Of a stretch of 27,269 nt of DNA, positions 793 through 14,326 are shown in pieces. The translations under genes were made by a program, and so were the position numbers. Numbering within the stretch: the first letter of the stretch is position 1; each line of letters starts with the position of its first letter. The notes below the pieces were generated by a model. That model made no database searches. It saw only the letters and a list, made by a program, of their open reading frames with translations, and was not told the origin of the DNA. Origin of the DNA: a virus (lineage: Duplodnaviria; Heunggongvirae; Uroviricota; Caudoviricetes); the IMG/VR virus record IMGVR_UViG_2617270980_000004, positions 1 to 27,269 of that record. One strand, written 5' to 3'.

Positions 793-834
793 GTTCACAG
801 ATAAAACACTCTCCAGGAAACCCGGGGCGGTTCA
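1..834 (+). mobile_element. IS3-family insertion sequence, right-hand portion (IS629/IS1203-like by recall); left part lies outside the window
   Basis: Transposase OrfB frame is open from base 1 to a TGA at 790-792. Sequence CTCCAGGAAACCCGGGGCGGTTCA ending at 834 matches my recollection of an IS629-type terminal inverted repeat. Exact IS identity not verified. Confidence 0.75.
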
Positions 835-847
835 CGTTGGTTAGCTA

Positions 848-1066
848 TTAACGCGGGTATGTAATCATTCTGGCAATGCTTAATGCCGCTGCTTTTTCCA
901 GATTAGTGATATCCTGCTCCAGAGCGGACAGATTTTCAGCCTGCTTAGCCCTGGCTTCATTGGCCCATTTCAGATCCTGCGCTGCATTAATTTTCTGGTG
1001 CATCCACTCATAAAGTTCATCATCGGTATAGTCTGGCGCGATGATGACGGGTTCTCGTTTCTGCAT
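848..1066 (-). CDS. hypothetical small phage protein (early-left region), 72 aa
   Basis: ORF with GAGGAA Shine-Dalgarno upstream of ATG at 1066; same strand and tight spacing with the two upstream small genes. Stop lies 13 bp from the IS end. Confidence 0.55.
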   Translation of the reverse strand: MQKREPVIIAPDYTDDELYEWMHQKINAAQDLKWANEARAKQAENLSALEQDITNLEKAAALSIARMITYPR

Positions 1067-1095
1067 ACTGATTCCTCGCGGTGCTGTTTCGCTTA

Positions 1096-1224
1096 TCAGC
1101 CGTTAGATTTTGCCGAGCTGGAAAGCGCCTGTTTAAACTCACTGAAGCTGAGAGCTTCTTCGCCTTCGGCAAGGCCTTCGAAGTATTCTTCGTAAGCCTT
1201 TTCCATGATTGTGTCGAAATCCAT
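1096..1224 (-). CDS. hypothetical 42-aa acidic protein (below the 60-aa ORF-track cutoff)
   Basis: Hand translation of the reverse strand gives MDFDTIMEKAYEEYFEGLAEGEEALSFSEFKQALSSSAKSNG. GGTGAG Shine-Dalgarno 4-5 nt upstream; its ATG lies 1 nt after the stop of the upstream gene (TGATATG). Confidence 0.35.
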   Translation of the reverse strand: MDFDTIMEKAYEEYFEGLAEGEEALSFSEFKQALSSSAKSNG

Positions 1225-1225
1225 A

Positions 1226-1468
1226 TCACTCACCTGAGTTTCTTTCCAGCCAGCGACGGGCACCATTTTCGGTTTTAAACGTTTTGCTTTTGGTATACGT
1301 CATCGCGGTGAATGTGCCGTCCTGGTTGGGAAACACGCCGTACACCAGAGATTCATTGTTGCCAAGATCGATAGTATCCATGCTGACCTCATTTCCCCTT
1401 AACGCCGGGGTAGCGGAACTAAAAAACTGCTGCGCTGTTATATAAAGTGTTCCCGCCGTCATGTTCAT
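1226..1468 (-). CDS. hypothetical phage protein, 80 aa, first gene of the leftward early operon
   Basis: ORF on the minus strand immediately downstream of the OL-like operator; GAGG upstream of the ATG. No recognisable motif. Confidence 0.55.
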   Translation of the reverse strand: MNMTAGTLYITAQQFFSSATPALRGNEVSMDTIDLGNNESLVYGVFPNQDGTFTAMTYTKSKTFKTENGARRWLERNSGE

Positions 1469-1587
1469 ACGCCTCGGGCTGGCTACTTAACCCCTGACCA
1501 CTGCCGGGTAACTCGAAGTATTGCCTGGCGTTCTGTGGGGCGGGGTGGGTTGATGAATGAACAATACCACTACTATTTAATTATGTA

Positions 1588-1602
1588 AATAGCAGTGCTA
1601 TT
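1588..1602. promoter_or_regulatory. OL-like operator: perfect palindrome AATAGCA-G-TGCTATT
   Basis: 15-bp perfect inverted repeat seen directly; the same motif family recurs twice between the repressor and cro genes. Confidence 0.5.
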
Positions 1603-1611
1603 ATCGTGGCA

Positions 1612-1636
1612 AGAAAAAAACCACCCGAAGGTGGTT
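1612..1636 (-). terminator. rho-independent terminator for leftward transcription, downstream of the toxin gene
   Basis: On the minus strand: stem ACCACC/GGTGGT with CGAA-type loop followed by a run of 7+ T. Confidence 0.55.
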
Positions 1637-1650
1637 GTTGACAGGAAGGA

Positions 1651-1941
1651 TTAACAGGTTTTGTTTGGATACTGTCTTCGTGAGTGAACTACATTTACGA
1701 TCTCGATGTTAGATGCTGTTACTCGGTAAAGTATTATGTAGTTAGGATGAGTCACTATCTCACGAAGACTTGGAACTCTTTCGCTCGGTGGGTACAGATA
1801 AGGGTGTTCAGTAAGTGACAAAACTGATGTTTCAATGCGTATTTTTAGTCTACGTGCAGCGGGAGGGTTTTCCTTAGCAATATAGGCTACGATCTGACGT
1901 AAATCATCACGTGCAGAAGGTAGCCATAAAATGGGCAGCAT
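1651..1941 (-). CDS. parE: ParE/RelE-superfamily type II toxin, 96 aa
   Basis: Size and sequence pattern of ParE/RelE toxins (N-terminal helical hairpin, C-terminal YRV...IVNVVHSRR). Start codon overlaps the stop of the upstream antitoxin (TAATG). Confidence 0.8.
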   Translation of the reverse strand: MLPILWLPSARDDLRQIVAYIAKENPPAARRLKIRIETSVLSLTEHPYLYPPSERVPSLREIVTHPNYIILYRVTASNIEIVNVVHSRRQYPNKTC

Positions 1942-2132
1942 TACTCACTCCTGTTCGTTGCAGCTAATTGAGCAATAAGGTTTTCCATTTCAGCCATTAC
2001 TTCGTCATGTGGAATTGCAGGACGGGGATCTGAGAGGCTTGCTGCCACTTTGGTTCGCAACCATTCGTTATAGCTGTTTTCTTGTTCGACTGTTTCAAAT
2101 TCAGAAATTATCGGGGAAAGGGCTGTACTCAT
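1941..2132 (-). CDS. cognate antitoxin, 63 aa (PaaA-like by recall)
   Basis: Small acidic protein translationally coupled to the toxin; GGAGG Shine-Dalgarno; starts 18 bp after the repressor stop with no intervening terminator. Confidence 0.75.
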   Translation of the reverse strand: MSTALSPIISEFETVEQENSYNEWLRTKVAASLSDPRPAIPHDEVMAEMENLIAQLAATNRSE

Positions 2133-2149
2133 GTTTTTACCTCCTCAGA

Positions 2150-2650
2150 TTAGGCGCGACGACCCTTTTGCGCAGCTAGCCATCGCGCAACGATTTCTTC
2201 AATTGATTCTTTTTTCTCCTTCATTTCCTTAAGCATTTTCTCTTTATCTTCTTTGGGGAAAGCCCTGAACGTCTGGAGCAAATCCCGCTCCATGGGGTCT
2301 ATATTAAACGGAAGTTCGTTTTCCGATTGTTCCATATCTGCAGATATAGTGACAACATTGTCCTCCCCAGATTCTTGGGGATACATCCTTACAATTTGTA
2401 ACAACTCGGCCATATCTGGTCTGATTGACTCGGGAGGAACTTGCAGCAACCCTGCGAACTTGATAACAGCCTCAAGATTTAAAGGTGTCTGACCATTTAG
2501 ATAATGGCTTACAGCTCCCTGTGTCGAAAATCCCAGAATTTCTGCCGCACGCTCTTGGGTTAACCCTAGTTGATTTTTTTTCGCCGTCCAGATTTCTTTC
2601 AGTCTCTGGGCGGCTTGCAGGTCGATCTCTGACAGGGATTTTCTTTTCAT
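2150..2650 (-). CDS. prophage repressor, XRE-family helix-turn-helix, without a LexA/S24-type autocleavage domain (CI/RacR/PaaR-like)
   Basis: HTH segment LGLTQERAAEILGFSTQGAVSHYLNG; C-terminal 90 aa are acidic/lysine-rich with no Ser-Lys peptidase dyad. Divergent from the Cro-like gene across an operator-bearing intergenic region. Confidence 0.85.
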   Translation of the reverse strand: MKRKSLSEIDLQAAQRLKEIWTAKKNQLGLTQERAAEILGFSTQGAVSHYLNGQTPLNLEAVIKFAGLLQVPPESIRPDMAELLQIVRMYPQESGEDNVVTISADMEQSENELPFNIDPMERDLLQTFRAFPKEDKEKMLKEMKEKKESIEEIVARWLAAQKGRRA

Positions 2651-2685
2651 ACCTTCAATTCTAATAAGATTATTAATCTCTTTGA

Positions 2686-2700
2686 AATAGTGATGCTATT
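2686..2700. promoter_or_regulatory. OR-like operator site AATAGTG-A-TGCTATT
   Basis: Near-palindrome matching the OL site at 13 of 15 positions; lies in the repressor/cro intergenic region next to a TTGAAA -35-like hexamer. Confidence 0.5.
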
Positions 2701-2710
2701 TACTTTTAAA

Positions 2711-2725
2711 AATAACAATGCTATT
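2711..2725. promoter_or_regulatory. OR-like operator site AATAACA-A-TGCTATT
   Basis: Second copy of the operator motif, 25 bp from the first. Confidence 0.45.
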
Positions 2726-2732
2726 AATGATC

Positions 2733-2745
2733 GTGATGACATCAC
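2733..2745. promoter_or_regulatory. perfect 13-bp palindrome GTGATGACATCAC just upstream of the cro ribosome binding site
   Basis: Seen directly; sequence is distinct from the AATAGCA/TGCTATT operator family. Confidence 0.35.
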
Positions 2746-2757
2746 ATGAGGTGAACA

Positions 2758-3033
2758 ATGAATCTTGGAGAATATTTGCATCATTCCGGTATAACTCAGA
2801 AGCATTTTGCTGAAATTGTTGGGGTAACCCAAGGGATGGTAAGCCATGTCATTACCGGACGGGCGAAACTTACGGGGAAAAAAATTTTACGCTGGTGCGA
2901 AGCAACAGGCTGGATAGTAACTCCGCACGAGATTGATGGCAGTACTTATCCCAACCCAACCGACGGCTTACCTGTCGAGTATCAGGCTAACACACAACCA
3001 GAGGCGGGGGGGATTCATGAAAATCAAGCATGA
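2758..3033 (+). CDS. Cro-like HTH regulator (YdaS family by recall)
   Basis: HTH ITQKHFAEIVGVTQGMVSHVITG; GAGGTG Shine-Dalgarno; divergent from the repressor. Confidence 0.8.
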   Translation: MNLGEYLHHSGITQKHFAEIVGVTQGMVSHVITGRAKLTGKKILRWCEATGWIVTPHEIDGSTYPNPTDGLPVEYQANTQPEAGGIHENQA

Positions 3034-3442
3034 ACACATCCGCATGGCAATGAATGCCTGGGCGTATCCAGACGGTGAGAAAGTTCCAGCAGCTGAAATA
3101 GCCCGGACTTATTTCGAACTGGGGATGACGTTCCCGGAACTGTACGACGACAGCCATCCGGAAGCCCTGGCCCGTAATACCCAGAAAATTTTCCGCTGGG
3201 TAGAGAAAGACACCCCTGATGCAGTTGAAAAAATTCAGGCGTTGTTACCAGCGATCGAAAAGGCAATGCCACCTTTGCTGGTGGCCAGAATGCGCAGCCA
3301 CAGTTCAGCTTATTTTCGGGAGCTGGTGGAGACGCGGGAGCGACTGGTGAGAGACGCTGATGATTTTGTCGCAGTGGCAATCGCCGGTTTCAATCAGATG
3401 AACCGTGGTGGCCCGGCAGGAAATGCTGTGGCAGTACATTGA
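3017..3442 (+). CDS. YdaT-like protein (CII-position gene of Rac-type immunity regions)
   Basis: Internal ATG at 3017 preceded by a G-rich Shine-Dalgarno. N-terminus MKIKHEHIR matches my recollection of Rac-prophage YdaT. The ORF-track start at 2933 is rejected because it lies inside cro. Confidence 0.7.
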   Translation: MKIKHEHIRMAMNAWAYPDGEKVPAAEIARTYFELGMTFPELYDDSHPEALARNTQKIFRWVEKDTPDAVEKIQALLPAIEKAMPPLLVARMRSHSSAYFRELVETRERLVRDADDFVAVAIAGFNQMNRGGPAGNAVAVH

Positions 3443-3513
3443 CTGACAATAGCCATATCGAATCGCTTCCGGCAACTCGTGAGTAAAAAGATTCGGTATC
3501 AGAAGAGGTGAGT

Positions 3514-4530
3514 ATGGCTAACGCCTGGCTCAGATTATGGCATGACATGCCAAATGACCCTAAGTGGCGAACAATTGCCAGGGTGTCAGGGCAGCCAATT
3601 GCAACAGTGATGGCAGTGTATATCCACCTCCTGGTGAGCGCGTCACGAAATGTCACGCGAGGTCACATTGATGTCACGACAGAAGATTTGGCAAGTGCGC
3701 TCGACGTGACAGAAGAGGTAATTGATTCAATTTTGCAGACGATGCAGGGGCGGGTACTTGATGGTGATTTAATCACTGGATGGGAAAAACGCCAGGTGCT
3801 TAAAGAGGACAACGGCAATATTTCGCAAACCGCAAAATCTCCGGCAGAGCGCAAGAGGGCGCAGCGTGAGAGGGAAAGAAAGCGGGAACAAAATGGCGAT
3901 TGTCACGGCGCGTCACGAAATGTCACGCACATGTCACGACAAGTCACGACAGATAAAGATACAGATACAGAATTAAACCCCACACATAACGCGCGCATGC
4001 GCGAGAGTGCTCCAACCGGTGAGTCGCATGGTGCGCCGTTGCAGACAGCCGAACCTGAATACCTGGACGGCCTGAGCGAACCGATCGGGAAATTTTCGAT
4101 GACTACTGTCTGGCAGCTGTCGTCGGATTTTCGACAACGGGCAGCAGTGTGGGGTATGGCTCTGCCTGAGCCGGAATTTACACCTGCAGAGCTTGCCGCA
4201 TTCCGGGATTACTGGATGGCGGAGGGGAAGGTTTTCACGCAGGTTCAGTGGGAGCAGAAATTTGCCCGCCACGTGCAGCACGTCAGGGCACAGGTAAAAC
4301 CAGTCAGCAAGGGGGTAAGCCATGCAGCATCAGGTGGCACGGCATCACGGGCAGTTCAGGAAATCCGGGCAGCACGCGAACAGTGGGAACGTGACAACGG
4401 ATTTATCAGCAACGGAAACGGCCTGGAAGCTGTGGGAGCTTATGGGGGAGGTGTATTCGAACCGCTGGACACAGAAGAACGGGGCCGCACCTTCGAAGCT
4501 CTGGATTGCCCAGATTGGCGCGATGACTGA
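3514..4530 (+). CDS. replication initiator, O-like/YdaU-like, with internal origin iterons
   Basis: ATG at 3514 with AGAGGTG Shine-Dalgarno; N-terminal winged-helix-like region; two iteron clusters plus an AT-rich tract embedded in the coding sequence, as in lambda O. Confidence 0.7.
   Translation: MANAWLRLWHDMPNDPKWRTIARVSGQPIATVMAVYIHLLVSASRNVTRGHIDVTTEDLASALDVTEEVIDSILQTMQGRVLDGDLITGWEKRQVLKEDNGNISQTAKSPAERKRAQRERERKREQNGDCHGASRNVTHMSRQVTTDKDTDTELNPTHNARMRESAPTGESHGAPLQTAEPEYLDGLSEPIGKFSMTTVWQLSSDFRQRAAVWGMALPEPEFTPAELAAFRDYWMAEGKVFTQVQWEQKFARHVQHVRAQVKPVSKGVSHAASGGTASRAVQEIRAAREQWERDNGFISNGNGLEAVGAYGGGVFEPLDTEERGRTFEALDCPDWRDD
3638..3980. repeat. putative replication origin: two iteron clusters of GTCACG at roughly 10-bp spacing, followed by an AT-rich segment
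   Basis: GTCACG/GTCACA at 3642, 3652, 3662, 3673 and at 3902, 3912, 3922, 3932, 3942; a 19-bp direct repeat GCGTCACGAAATGTCACGC at 3640 and 3910; AT-rich GATAAAGATACAGATACAGAATTAAA from 3952. Confidence 0.5.
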
Positions 4531-13609: not shown

Positions 13610-13685
13610 GGCCCTTTAGCTCAGTGGTGAGAGCGAGCGACTCATAATCGCCAGGTCGCTGGTTCAAATCCAGCAAGGGCCACCA
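13610..13685 (+). tRNA. tRNA with CAU anticodon (resembles E. coli minor Ile tRNA ileX/ileZ by recall; Met not excluded)
   Basis: Cloverleaf folds by hand: acceptor GGCCCTT/AAGGGCC, D arm GCTC...GAGC, anticodon loop CTCATAA, T arm GCTGG TTCAAAT CCAGC, 3' CCA encoded. Confidence 0.85.
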
Positions 13686-13785
13686 TCACAAACCGCCATT
13701 AGCTTATCAGGAAGAGCAGACGACACGATAACAGGGTTGTTGGTGCGGGGGCGGGTCCCCGATGGCGGTCCATTATCGGTATTCA

Positions 13786-13862
13786 GCGTTGTTAGCTCAG
13801 CCGGACAGAGCAATTGCCTTCTAAGCAATCGGTCACTGGTTCGAATCCAGTACAGCGCGCCA
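13786..13862 (+). tRNA. tRNA-Arg (anticodon UCU)
   Basis: Cloverleaf folds by hand: acceptor GCGTTGT/ACAGCGC, anticodon stem ATTGC/GCAAT with loop CTTCTAA, T arm ACTGG TTCGAAT CCAGT, 3' CCA encoded. Confidence 0.85.
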
Positions 13863-13996: not shown

Positions 13997-14326
13997 CTAA
14001 TGGTTTTTTCAGCATTAAATATTTATCATTCATATGGTGTGGGTAGAGTGAATATTGATGAGGCGTCGGGGTGTTTCATCCTTAGGCAGCGTATTGATAT
14101 AGTCAATGCAGAACGAGCAAAGGCCTTCAGCCGTTTGACAGTTTTGTTCTGTACTCCTGATCGTCTTTCGGGAAGAGACGTTATTATTCTGAATAGTGAT
14201 GCTATACAGAGGGTTTGCGATGAGTTCATGGTGGCTAATTCAGAATTATTTGCTCTTGTTCAGGAGTACAACAGAATAGCCAGGACCTGTGGTATGGATG
14301 AACTTCGGATTACTCATCTGGGGTAG
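13997..14326 (+). CDS. hypothetical orphan protein in the AT-rich cargo island (start uncertain: 13970 TTG, 13997 ATG or 14048 GTG)
   Basis: Open frame without a convincing Shine-Dalgarno; contains a near-exact copy of the OR-type operator. Confidence 0.35.
   Translation, partial: LMVFSALNIYHSYGVGRVNIDEASGCFILRQRIDIVNAERAKAFSRLTVLFCTPDRLSGRDVIILNSDAIQRVCDEFMVANSELFALVQEYNRIARTCGMDELRITHLG
14192..14206. promoter_or_regulatory. distal copy of the immunity operator motif, AATAGTGATGCTATA
   Basis: Matches the OR site at 2686-2700 at 14 of 15 positions. Confidence 0.35.

Follow-up and report, generated by a model that had tools for sequence, protein, structure and literature searches.

The window, meaning the whole 27,269-nt stretch of DNA analyzed here, contains a repressor gene and a divergent cro gene, which are accompanied by a toxin-antitoxin pair, by ydaT, and by a putative YdaT operator, as follows.

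1651-1941, minus strand: ParE-family toxin gene (Pfam PF05016, E = 6.6e-18)
1941-2132, minus strand: PaaA2-family antitoxin gene (Pfam PF21217 [PaaA2], E = 1e-21)
2150-2650, minus strand: repressor gene, 166 aa, with a lambda-CI-like N-terminal HTH and a PaaR2/DicA-type C-terminal helical module
2758-3033, plus strand: cro (YdaS-like) gene, 91 aa (Pfam HTH_3; PHROG 35)
3010-3027, no strand: OM-like site of YdaT (putative operator) at the cro/ydaT junction, GGGATTCATGAAAATCAA, with 2 mismatches to TTGATT-N6-AATCAA
3017-3442, plus strand: ydaT (CII-like activator) gene (Pfam PF06254; PHROG 163, CII-like)

The repressor, PaaA2, and ParE genes are adjacent on one strand, with the antitoxin and toxin downstream of the regulator and a terminator after parE. 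HTH_3 is the sole Pfam match of the repressor, and the Pfam search did not find an S24 peptidase domain in its 166 aa. Compared with lambda CI N-terminal-domain structures, the repressor gave a phmmer E value of ~1e-9. Over its last 44 aa, the repressor shares 55% identity with the PaaR2-type regulator of phage Evi, and the alignment with that regulator is confined to these residues. The N-terminal domain of the Evi regulator matches PDB 7nkv/8c3k, whereas the N-terminal domain of the repressor matches lambda CI and not these structures.

For YdaT, phmmer returned E = 2e-89 to PDB 3c4r and 1e-78 to 8bt1, and the predicted protein is essentially the crystallized YdaT. In CP-933P, the YdaT site TTGATT-N6-AATCAA is located at the cro/ydaT junction (Prolic-Kalinsek et al. 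2023, PMC9986795), and YdaT is without effect on PR, PRM, or PL (PMC8630535). The position corresponding to 3010-3027 begins with TTGATT in Evi and with GTGATT in most related loci.

Promoters and terminator

Transcription of the region can be assigned to three predicted promoters and one intrinsic terminator.

1561-1589, minus strand: PL-like promoter of a leftward ydfA-like (DUF1391) operon (promoter scan 9/12, with TG)
1611-1636, minus strand: intrinsic terminator of the repressor-paaA-parE operon, immediately ahead of OL (terminator scan; AACCACCTTCGGGTGGTT and then a run of T)
2658-2686, minus strand: PRM-like promoter (promoter scan 9/12 plus geometry)
2699-2727, plus strand: PR-like promoter driving cro-ydaT (read from the sequence and from alignment with PL, Rac-SA53, and Lyz12581Vzw)

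The PL-like promoter consists of a -35 TTTACA (1589-1584), a 17-nt spacer, and a TG-extended -10 TGgTATTGT (1569-1561), with a predicted start at approximately 1554. Its -35 (TGTAAATAG on the plus strand) is invariant in 29 OL haplotypes, and the terminator at 1611-1636 is kept in all OL haplotypes. The PR-like promoter has the same spacer length, with a -35 TTTACT (2699-2704) and a TG-extended -10 TGcTATTAA (2719-2727), which places the predicted start at approximately 2733-2736. The promoter scan did not call this promoter because its -10, TATTAA, is without the usual T6. In the PRM-like promoter, a 17-nt spacer separates the -35 TTCAAA (2686-2681) from the -10 TAGAAT (2663-2658). Because only 7 nt lie between this -10 and the repressor ATG, the repressor mRNA from the PRM-like promoter is predicted to be leaderless, starting at approximately 2650. 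The hexamers of all three predicted promoters are weak matches.

Putative operators at OL and OR

The first-pass annotation had described a family of operators, AATAGCA-N-TGCTATT, based on a perfect 15-bp palindrome at OL and two near-palindromic copies between the repressor and cro genes. Direct reading and a script confirmed the palindrome at 1588-1602, and the copies at 2686-2700 and 2711-2725 are present between the two genes as described. The family itself is real and exceeds what shuffled sequences yield; however, the proposed consensus was overspecified, given that its central bases are unconserved, and a fourth copy at 1563-1577 had been missed. The sites are listed below with their weight-matrix scores.

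1563-1577, no strand: OL1, promoter-proximal putative operator overlapping the PL -10, AATACCACTACTATT (23.1 bits)
1588-1602, no strand: OL2, distal putative operator, a perfect 7+1+7 palindrome, AATAGCAGTGCTATT (27.4 bits)
2663-2677, no strand: OR3, weak candidate in the PRM spacer and -10, 23 bp from the OR2 center, AATAAGATTATTAAT
2686-2700, no strand: OR2, putative operator with 2 mismatches to AATAGCAGTGCTATT, AATAGTGATGCTATT (25.5 bits)
2711-2725, no strand: OR1, putative operator with 1 mismatch to AATAGCAGTGCTATT, covering the PR spacer and -10, AATAACAATGCTATT (26.1 bits)

Allowing up to three mismatches, we detected 6 matches to AATAGCANTGCTATT compared to 1.0 expected, and none of 100 shuffles reached 6. 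The refined motif AATAG-N5-CTATT, with at most one mismatch, has 5 matches compared to 0.48 expected (0 of 100 shuffles); four of these fall in the PL and PR promoter regions, where their 25-bp spacing is identical. A better form of the motif is AATA-g-y-r-N-y-r-c-TATT, in which the outer arms are invariant and the center is free. Over 27 kb, a weight matrix derived from the same sites that it ranks at the top gave the four operators 23 to 27 bits, compared to 7.9 bits for the best nonoperator site. A 15-mer at 14192-14206 that is identical to OR2 at 14 of 15 positions was considered as a distal operator and rejected. It is without the terminal T, and we treat it as a chance match because it scores 3.6 bits and lies inside a coding sequence.

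The strong sites and the promoters are tightly interleaved. OL1 and OL2 are separated by 25 bp, center to center, and OL2 overlaps the PL -35 by 2 nt. OR2 shares 2 nt with the PR -35 and abuts the PRM -35, with its center approximately 42 to 43 bp upstream of the predicted PRM start. PL and PR align base for base, sharing a 15+10+15 layout with the promoter hexamers in register; in both, the final bases of the distal site form the start of the -35, and the right arm of the proximal site contains the TG-extended -10. The predicted PL and PR regions are paralogous.

Overall, there are two strong sites at OL and two at OR, plus one weak OR candidate. A third site with the operator motif was not found in the OL region. 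The OR3 candidate at 2663-2677 has a weak weight-matrix score (rank 33 of 27,251). In a lineage of 78% identity, the same position holds AATAAGATTGCTAAT, a better match than AATAAGATTATTAAT, and the counterpart in phage Lyz12581Vzw is ATTAGCAACACAAAT, at the same 23-bp offset. We regard OR3 in the window as a weak candidate.

We compared the region with 50 related loci, which provided 25 OR and 29 OL haplotypes. Because these loci are mostly close relatives, conservation among them partly reflects shared ancestry. The AATA/TATT arms are invariant in the OR and OL haplotypes, with variation in the centers and in the spacer between sites; across the 50 loci, the 77 remaining intergenic positions show almost no variation. 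OR2 is represented by 12 alleles among the 50 loci, which differ at positions 6 to 10 only and have invariant arms, and the left arm and TATT of OR1 are invariant in the 25 haplotypes. The arms of both OL1 and OL2 are kept across OL haplotypes, with variation in the OL1 center; in a few contigs with T-runs, the OL spacing shifts by 2 to 3 nt. These results support the assignment of the AATAG...CTATT sites as the putative OL and OR operators of a prophage immunity region.

Related immunity regions and distribution

The N-terminal domains of two independently diverged repressors, Lyz12581Vzw CI and Rac-SA53 'DicA', are 52 to 55% identical to that of the repressor, and their near-identical recognition helices are TQGAVSQ (Lyz12581Vzw) and SQGTVSQ (Rac-SA53), compared to TQGAVSH here. 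At the OR2 position, Rac-SA53 has GATAGTCTGACTATT and the Stx2a phage Lyz12581Vzw has AATAGCTAGACTATT. In both, the -35 has its first bases in the terminal TT, and a second dyad follows at a distance of 24 to 25 bp downstream. This recurrence of motif and geometry also supports the operator assignment. The proximal site differs, being ATTAG/ATCAG-N5-CTAAT in these two relatives and AATAA-N5-CTATT here. The Lyz12581Vzw (Oslovirus) protein is also a true CI with an S24 peptidase domain, unlike the repressor in the window. Our literature search found no published operator mapping for Lyz12581Vzw CI or Rac-SA53 'DicA'. In contrast to these relatives, another one combines the same C-terminal module as the repressor with a 434-like HTH and has different, ACAAC..GTTG-like repeats, and the intergenic region of phage Evi, with its PaaR2-type regulator, has GTTTAGTAA-like repeats. 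In these comparisons, the sequence of the putative operators changes with the DNA-binding domain of the repressor.

This immunity specificity is present in approximately 72 of 5,426 complete E. coli genomes, including those of STEC strains. A scan of species-representative genomes for the repressor found no relatives, so the immunity type seems to be confined to E. coli prophages that are absent from the representative genome. In a phage DNA search, the immunity region was shared with no deposited phage, and only the flanks (ydaT, DUF1391) had matches. Literature searches on PaaR1 and on further PaaR2 operators yielded nothing on the AATAG-N5-CTATT immunity type.

The palindrome beside cro

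The remaining feature of the repressor-cro intergenic region is a palindrome of a different sequence.

2733-2745, no strand: 13-bp perfect palindrome, GTGATGACATCAC (6+1+6), at approximately +1 to +13 of PR; judged incidental

The palindrome is located 13 nt upstream of the cro ATG (2758), and both direct reading and a script confirmed it as a separate, perfect dyad. From its presence, the first-pass annotation had argued that a second operator class, and with it a second regulator, acts at PR. We did not find this to hold: the palindrome occurs at chance level, is unconserved, and does not match the operator matrix, and the YdaT site lies elsewhere. In the window, there are 16 perfect 6+1+6 palindromes, and 48 palindromes have arms of at least 6 nt and a spacer of 0 to 3 nt. 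Such a palindrome is found in 13.5% of 107-nt windows and in 22% of composition-matched shuffles of the repressor-cro intergenic region, and the region contains another perfect 13-bp palindrome, AGATTATTAATCT, at 2667-2679. With a weight-matrix score of -36.6 (rank 4,714), GTGATGACATCAC is no match to the AATAG operator family.

Among the 50 related loci, GTGATGACATCAC is kept in 20 and broken or replaced in 30; the 20 loci in which it is perfect are among the 28 of group A, the closest lineage. Eight loci whose repressor is 99 to 100% identical have GTAATGACATCAC at this position, which is a single G-to-A break, and other loci have ATGGTCACATAAC or GGTAACACATCAC. In loci without GTGATGACATCAC, the recognition helices of the repressor and Cro are unchanged and YdaT is nearly unchanged. 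The segment containing the palindrome, between the PR -10 and the SD, is the least constrained stretch of the intergenic region, and in two of the three lineages its variation is similar to an approximate rate for synonymous sites. We also considered hypervariability (diversification) of this segment and rejected it; a rate close to that of synonymous sites reads as unconstrained. GTGATGACATCAC is most likely a chance feature rather than a second operator.

Several functions for the palindrome can be weighed against this interpretation. If GTGATGACATCAC were a second, distinct PR operator, recognized not by the repressor but by Cro, YdaT, or some further phage protein, cro transcription would come under an additional control, with initiation or promoter escape blocked at approximately +1 to +13. 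The perfect dyad is right at the predicted PR start, each arm is like a common YdaT half-site variant (GTGATG compared to GTGATT), and most loci of the closest lineage have the perfect form. In addition, the fourth repeat of CP-933P, IR4, is situated close to the ydaS RBS, on the downstream side of PR (PMC8630535), therefore an operator at this place would not be unprecedented. We nevertheless consider such an operator quite unlikely, given a palindrome that is not above chance, its loss or replacement in the majority of loci while its potential binders stay the same or nearly so, and a segment that evolves roughly like synonymous sites. Rac-SA53 and Lyz12581Vzw, unlike the window, have no dyad between the -10 and the cro RBS. 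The HTH of Cro aligns with that of the repressor, with recognition helices TQGMVSH and TQGAVSH, respectively; proteins with such near-identical helices (TQGxVSH) should share an operator set, and one class suffices. YdaT was rejected as the binder because its inverted repeat has half-sites spaced N6, which GTGATG-N1-CATCAC does not fit, because its real site is at 3010-3027, and because published reporter data show no effect on the CP-933P PR. It is highly improbable that GTGATGACATCAC is a recent, lineage-specific operator at the PR start that serves a regulator distinct from the repressor, for example one bound by YdaT on two GTGAT-type half-sites with noncanonical spacing. If YdaT did act on GTGATGACATCAC, it would be a direct CII-analogue brake on cro transcription, without counterpart in lambda or CP-933P, and the common G2735A variants, as natural alleles that have lost the site, would move the set-point between lysis and lysogeny.

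The palindrome might instead function as RNA, forming a 5'-terminal stem-loop (GUGAU-GAC-AUCAC) that shields the cro-ydaT transcript from 5'-end-dependent decay. With a start at 2733-2736, as predicted, the transcript would begin with the dyad, a 5-bp hairpin is present in the minimum-free-energy fold, and the variant GTGGTG would retain pairing via a G-U pair. However, the 40-nt fold has an energy of -5.3 kcal/mol (z = 0.37), an equal or better fold was obtained for 120 of 200 shuffles, and the hairpin is missing from the folds of three other common haplotypes. Because the PR start is a prediction, the left arm may also be partly untranscribed. Nothing was found in Rfam, with a permissive scan of 800-3600 giving one meaningless match. 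We rejected an RNA hairpin at the cro 5' end as no better in energy than shuffles and unconserved, and consider it very unlikely. Even less credible is the binding of a host global regulator to the palindrome as a CRP/FNR-family or Fur-like box, which would couple cro expression to host physiology. By eye, GTGA...TCAC and GAT...ATC resemble CRP and FNR half-sites. CRP half-sites are arranged as TGTGA-N6-TCACA and FNR half-sites as TTGAT-N4-ATCAA, and the corresponding spacings in the palindrome, GTGA-N5-TCAC and GAT-N3-ATC, are wrong. CRP, FNR, and Fur boxes were rejected on half-site spacing (by eye), and the palindrome is unconserved among related prophages of the same host species.

Discussion

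We conclude that the region is probably the immunity switch of a lambdoid E. coli prophage, in which one operator class serves both the repressor and Cro, YdaT acts elsewhere, and the palindrome is incidental. The repressor, with its lambda-CI-type HTH and PaaR2/DicA-type oligomerization module, and Cro would both bind the 15-bp dyad, which has invariant AATA/TATT ends, an adjoining semiconserved G-Y-R, and a free center. Because the -35 and -10 hexamers of PL and PR are embedded in the site pairs, bound repressor would occlude RNA polymerase. At OR2, the repressor could activate its own leaderless repressor-PaaA-ParE transcript, as lambda CI does, and the OR3 candidate in the PRM spacer would provide negative autoregulation or repression of PRM by Cro. 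The 1.1-kb separation of the four strong sites would be compatible with an OL-OR loop formed through an octamer; octamerization and looping are extrapolated from the 55% identity over 44 residues. YdaT would act at 3010-3027, and the palindrome would be incidental, belonging to the unconstrained initial transcribed region of a single lineage.

The result is a sequence-level model of an uncharacterized immunity specificity that includes operators, promoters, a probable leaderless transcript, and the YdaT site. The second operator class, which was the source of the apparent unusualness of this locus, is not supported, and the AATAG-N5-CTATT system leaves the understanding of lambdoid switches unchanged. 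The motif should predict heteroimmunity among such prophages and perhaps cross talk with the related Stx2a-phage CI.

In lambda, cI and cro are divergent, dyad operators lie over PR, PRM, and PL, and the repressor mRNA is leaderless. The region analyzed here is similar in its divergent repressor and cro genes, in the dyad operators over PR and PRM, and in the copies over PL past the terminator of the repressor operon. Further similarities are the adjacent sites 23 to 25 bp apart, the position of OR2 abutting the PRM -35 at approximately -42, the predicted leaderless repressor mRNA, and a repressor N-terminal domain homologous to that of lambda CI. The differences are a 15-bp AATA...TATT dyad in place of the 17-bp TATCACCGC-type sites of lambda, only two clear sites at OL and two strong sites plus one weak site at OR, and a repressor without the S24 autocleavage domain. 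The ParE/PaaA2 toxin-antitoxin pair takes the place of rexAB, and the CII analogue is YdaT.

In phage 434, the repressor and Cro share sites, and noncontacted central bases tune affinity. The region resembles 434 in the near-identical recognition helices of its repressor and Cro and in operators whose arms are conserved and whose central bases vary between sites and strains, although the 434 operator is ACAA-N6-TTGT rather than AATAG-N5-CTATT. By analogy, we hypothesize that the operator center could tune affinity here.

The prophage CP-933P of E. coli O157:H7, which encodes PaaR2-PaaA2-ParE2 together with YdaS and YdaT, has the same gene order and gene families, the same C-terminal module in its repressor, and a near-identical YdaT with the OM site in the same place. 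In CP-933P, the footprints of PaaR2 and YdaS overlap at OR, both proteins repress PL, paaR2 has been shown experimentally to be leaderless, and PaaR2 is reported to octamerize (Jurenas et al. 2021, PMC8630535). Sharing of operators at OR and PL by the repressor and Cro is correspondingly predicted here. The two systems differ in the N-terminal DNA-binding domain, which is lambda-CI-like here and does not have the sequence of the 7nkv/8c3k fold, and in the operators, which are AATAG-N5-CTATT 15-mers 25 bp apart here and, in CP-933P, four 18-bp repeats that are evenly spaced and have GTTTAGTAA half-sites. Given the different N-terminal domain and operators, the prophage would be a heteroimmune relative of CP-933P. 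It would extend the CP-933P paradigm, in that a PaaR2/DicA-type C-terminal module and its toxin-antitoxin cargo pair with different DNA-binding domains, and the operators follow.

Operators and promoters of the immunity region

The genes of the immunity region (Pfam assignments) and the terminator found by a terminator scan are as follows:

1226-1468, − strand: DUF1391 (ydfA-like)
1636-1619 plus T run: intrinsic terminator closing the repressor-paaA-parE operon
1651-1941, − strand: ParE toxin
1941-2132, − strand: PaaA2-family antitoxin
2150-2650, − strand: repressor, 166-aa HTH_3 protein
2758-3033, + strand: Cro-like protein, 91-aa HTH_3
3017-3442, + strand: YdaT

The first-pass annotation described a 15-mer operator family, and direct reading and a script confirmed its three copies at 1588-1602 (OL2, AATAGCAGTGCTATT, a perfect 7+1+7 palindrome at the OL position), 2686-2700 (OR2, AATAGTGATGCTATT), and 2711-2725 (OR1, AATAACAATGCTATT). 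We found a fourth, previously unlisted copy, OL1 (AATACCACTACTATT, 1563-1577), and the OL1-OL2 centre-to-centre distance of 25 bp is exactly the OR1-OR2 spacing. With up to three mismatches allowed, the 15-mer has six matches against 1.0 expected, and none of 100 shuffles reached six; a single family at OL and OR is therefore borne out, far above chance. Another OR2-like 15-mer, AATAGTGATGCTATA (14192-14206, 14 of 15 positions as in OR2), lies within an AT-rich ORF of unknown function (14036-14326, PHROG 2873) directly past the tRNA genes; it is probably a chance match rather than an operator, because the invariant terminal T is missing and its score on the operator matrix is only 3.6 bits.

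PR on the + strand (AATAGTGATGCTATTTACTTTTAAAAATAACAATGCTATTAA) and PL on the − strand (AATAGCACTGCTATTTACATAATTAAATAGTAGTGGTATTGT) align as paralogues. In both, the −35 (PR, TTTACT; PL, TTTACA) starts within the final bases of the distal operator, and the right arm of the proximal operator contains the TG-extended −10 (PR, TGcTATTAA; PL, TGgTATTGT). A promoter scan found PL (9/12 with TG) and made no call at PR because TATTAA lacks the conserved T6; we assigned PR by alignment to PL and to the corresponding regions of phages Rac-SA53 and Lyz12581Vzw. The scan also called a leftward intergenic promoter, the PRM-like promoter (−35 TTCAAA, 2686-2681; −10 TAGAAT, 2663-2658). Only 7 nt separate this −10 from the repressor ATG, therefore transcription should start at or adjoining the A of the ATG, and the transcript should be leaderless. 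The OR2 centre (2693) lies about 42 to 43 bp upstream of this predicted start, and lambda CI at OR2 activates PRM from about 42 to 43 bp upstream of the start.

A weak OR3 candidate, AATAAGATTATTAAT (2663-2677), ranks 33rd of 27,251 by weight matrix and so stays a candidate. Phage Lyz12581Vzw has ATTAGCAACACAAAT 23 bp upstream of OR2, the same offset, and the 78%-identity lineage has AATAAGATTGCTAAT, which is closer to the motif. Two perfect palindromes in the PRM spacer, TAATAAGATTATTA (2662-2675) and AGATTATTAATCT (2667-2679), overlap each other and the OR3 candidate. The latter is kept in the two closer lineages, with single changes in only two loci (L043 and L049); the 78%-identity lineage has AGATTGCTAATCA at that position.

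Conservation of the operators

We gathered 6 E. coli and 46 IMG/VR loci; leaving out phage Evi and two distant loci (L051 and L052) and including the window gave 50 loci with 25 OR and 29 OL haplotypes. The outer AATA and TATT are invariant at each of the four sites; positions 5 to 7 are partly conserved (G, C/T, A/G), and the centre varies freely. OR2 has 12 alleles among the 50 loci, with differences confined to positions 6 to 10, and the 10-nt OL1-OL2 spacer drifts too, except for the −35. With 34 distinct instances as input, a weight matrix gives the four window sites 23 to 27 bits and no other position in 27 kb more than 7.9 bits, a comparison that is partly circular.

None of the six aligned E. 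coli loci has a change in the recognition helix of the repressor (GFSTQGAVSHYLNG) or in that of Cro (TQGMVSHVITG); the residues before the Cro helix vary (V/A and T/S). Phage 434 repressor and Cro, which have alike helices, use one shared operator set. The two proteins of the window can be aligned through the HTH, and the likeness of TQGAVSH in the repressor to TQGMVSH in Cro predicts a similarly shared set.

Of the five positions in the OR2 centre (2691-2695), 3, 3, and 2 are polymorphic in three separate lineages, beside invariant arms and a mostly invariant intergenic region; the corresponding centres of OL1 and OL2 are 1568-1572 and 1593-1597. In a rough comparison (about one-third of coding positions), this variation seems to exceed the synonymous rate in two of the lineages. 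Two explanations are conceivable: bases not contacted by protein may drift freely, or the centre may tune operator affinity, as it does in phage 434.

The 13-bp palindrome beside cro

A perfect 6+1+6 palindrome, GTGATGACATCAC, is present at 2733-2745, as the first-pass annotation stated, and lies 13 nt upstream of the cro ATG (2758). That annotation took it for a second operator class at PR, suggesting two regulators. By script, perfect 6+1+6 palindromes number 16 in the window, and relaxing the spacer to 0 to 3 and the arms to 6 nt or longer brings the count to 48; at least one such palindrome occurs in 13.5% of 107-nt windows and in 22% of composition-matched shuffles of the AT-rich (27% GC) intergenic region, which itself contains another perfect 13-bp palindrome, AGATTATTAATCT. 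The palindrome at 2733-2745 is not above chance, and it is perfect in only 20 of the 50 loci.

Table. Sequences at the 2733-2745 position in 50 loci
Sequence; loci; remark
GTGATGACATCAC; 20/50; perfect palindrome
GTAATGACATCAC; 8/50; repressor 99-100% identical
ATGGTCACATAAC; 10/50
GGTAACACATCAC; 10/50
GTGGTGACATCAC; 1/50
GTGATCACATAAC; 1/50

Across the six aligned E. coli loci, the palindrome is perfect, has a single mismatch, or is replaced, while the recognition helices of repressor and Cro are unchanged and YdaT is nearly so. Intergenic variation clusters at the OR2 centre and at 2729-2738, the left arm of the palindrome plus four preceding bases. The segment from the −10 to the SD has 1/20, 7/20, and 3/20 segregating sites in three lineages, close to an approximate synonymous rate in two of them; for the remaining 77 intergenic positions, the counts are 3, 5, and 1.

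The perfect form in 20 loci might mark a lineage-specific protein site. This is improbable: the palindrome does not resemble the operator weight matrix (score −36.6), and neither Rac-SA53 nor Lyz12581Vzw has a dyad at its position. Cro is a poor candidate for a separate class, since its helix predicts sites in common with the repressor. YdaT of the window is essentially the same protein as the crystallised YdaT (3c4r, E = 2e-89; 8bt1, E = 1e-78), whose site, TTGATT-N6-AATCAA, lies at the end of ydaS (PMC9986795). A site of this type, the putative YdaT operator OM, lies at 3010-3027 (GGGATTCATGAAAATCAA), and in prophage CP-933P, PR, PRM, and PL are all unaffected by YdaT (PMC8630535). The left arm of OM varies: most loci have GTGATT, Evi and the 78%-identity lineage have TTGATT, and the window shares with three other loci GGGATT, the form furthest from the published site. 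A role in RNA or for a host factor is very improbable. The 5-bp hairpin that the palindrome can form folds no better than shuffles do (z = 0.37), folds of the other common haplotypes lack it, and we found no Rfam match. From these comparisons, we conclude that the palindrome is most likely incidental, lying in an initial transcribed region that is under no constraint; the second operator class, the part of the original finding that would have been unusual, is unsupported.

Operator type and DNA-binding domain

The N-terminal domain of the repressor is a homologue of the DNA-binding domain of lambda CI (E about 1e-9); HTH_3 is the sole Pfam match, with no S24 peptidase (autocleavage) domain. 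The closest N-terminal domains in deposited phages are 52 to 55% identical, with recognition helices one to three residues off; they are those of Rac-SA53 "DicA" (SQGTVSQ) and the S24-containing CI of Stx2a phage Lyz12581Vzw (TQGAVSQ). Their repressor-cro intergenic regions have GATAGTCTGACTATT and AATAGCTAGACTATT, respectively, at the OR2 position and a second dyad 24 to 25 bp downstream (ATTAGTGAGGCTAAT and ATCAGGTAAGCTAAT), with the PR −35 (TTGATC and TTGACA) starting in the terminal TT of the distal site and the −10, TAATAT, within the proximal right arm. L051 and L052 have the C-terminal module of the window fused to a 434-like HTH (TQQTIQ), and their repeats differ (ACAAC..GTTG-like). 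Similar helices thus accompany the same motif and the 434-like HTH other repeats, which indicates that operator type tracks the DNA-binding domain.

The module itself (about 44 aa, ..LLQTFxAFPxEDxxxMLKEMKEKKE..ARWLAAQKGRRA) occurs on lambda-CI-like (window, 2150-2650), PaaR2-type (Evi, L002, 1564-1935), and 434-like TQQTIQ (L051, 2438-2842) domains, each with its own operator type. In Rac-SA53, a dyad at the OL position, ATTTAGTAACTAACTAAAT, about 100 to 160 nt past the dicA-like stop, resembles the CP-933P/PaaR2 half-site GTTTAGTAA, although its OR is AATAG-type; it may be a mosaic junction or the site of a heteroimmune repressor.

Features elsewhere in the window

The leftward PL operon (DUF1391 and small ORFs, 848-1468) ends against ORF 94-792, which by eye we take to be an IS3-family transposase OrfB; if so, the prophage left arm seems to have been cut by an IS element. 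The late region contains tRNA-Met (CAT) and tRNA-Arg (TCT) genes in 13610-13862. Stx phages carry tRNAs upstream of stx at this position, whereas in the window AT-rich cargo ORFs without known function follow instead of toxin genes.

Proposed switch and comparison with known systems

In the lysogen, repressor dimers on OR1, OR2, OL1, and OL2 would block both hexamers, −35 and −10, at PR and PL. From OR2, a dimer would contact RNA polymerase at PRM and boost the leaderless repressor-PaaA-ParE transcript, and at high repressor concentration the weak OR3 would close PRM. The PaaR2-like C-terminal module and the reported octamerisation of PaaR2 (PMC8630535) suggest that an octamer may bridge OL and OR; four strong sites 1.1 kb apart fit this. 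Cro, with a recognition helix like that of the repressor, would use the same sites to turn off PRM and later PR and PL, and YdaT at 3010-3027 would drive a PRE-like leftward promoter. Because no autocleavage domain was found, induction presumably does not proceed via RecA-mediated cleavage.

The gene architecture is that described for cryptic prophage CP-933P of E. coli O157:H7, in which PaaR2, YdaS, and YdaT are analogues of CI, Cro, and CII, the intergenic footprints of PaaR2 and YdaS overlap, these two proteins both repress a PL-like promoter, and paaR2 mRNA is leaderless and translated as such (PMC8630535). The operators differ: those of CP-933P are 18-bp repeats with GTTTAGTAA half-sites (PMC8630535), and those in the intergenic region of the window are of the AATAG-N5-CTATT type. 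Phage Evi has repeats of that type and a regulator whose N-terminal domain matches PDB 7nkv/8c3k; the window repressor shares only its last 44 residues with that regulator (55% identity). By DNA-binding domain and operator type, the repressor thus falls outside full PaaR2-family membership, and the region is, on this evidence, a heteroimmune, domain-shuffled relative rather than CP-933P itself. Its immunity region is present in 72 of 5,426 complete E. coli genomes (80 to 100% identity); we found none among deposited phage genomes and no description of these operators in the literature searched. As read from its sequence, the region would work like lambda OR/OL and like CP-933P, and its predicted leaderless repressor mRNA resembles both lambda cI mRNA from PRM and paaR2 mRNA.
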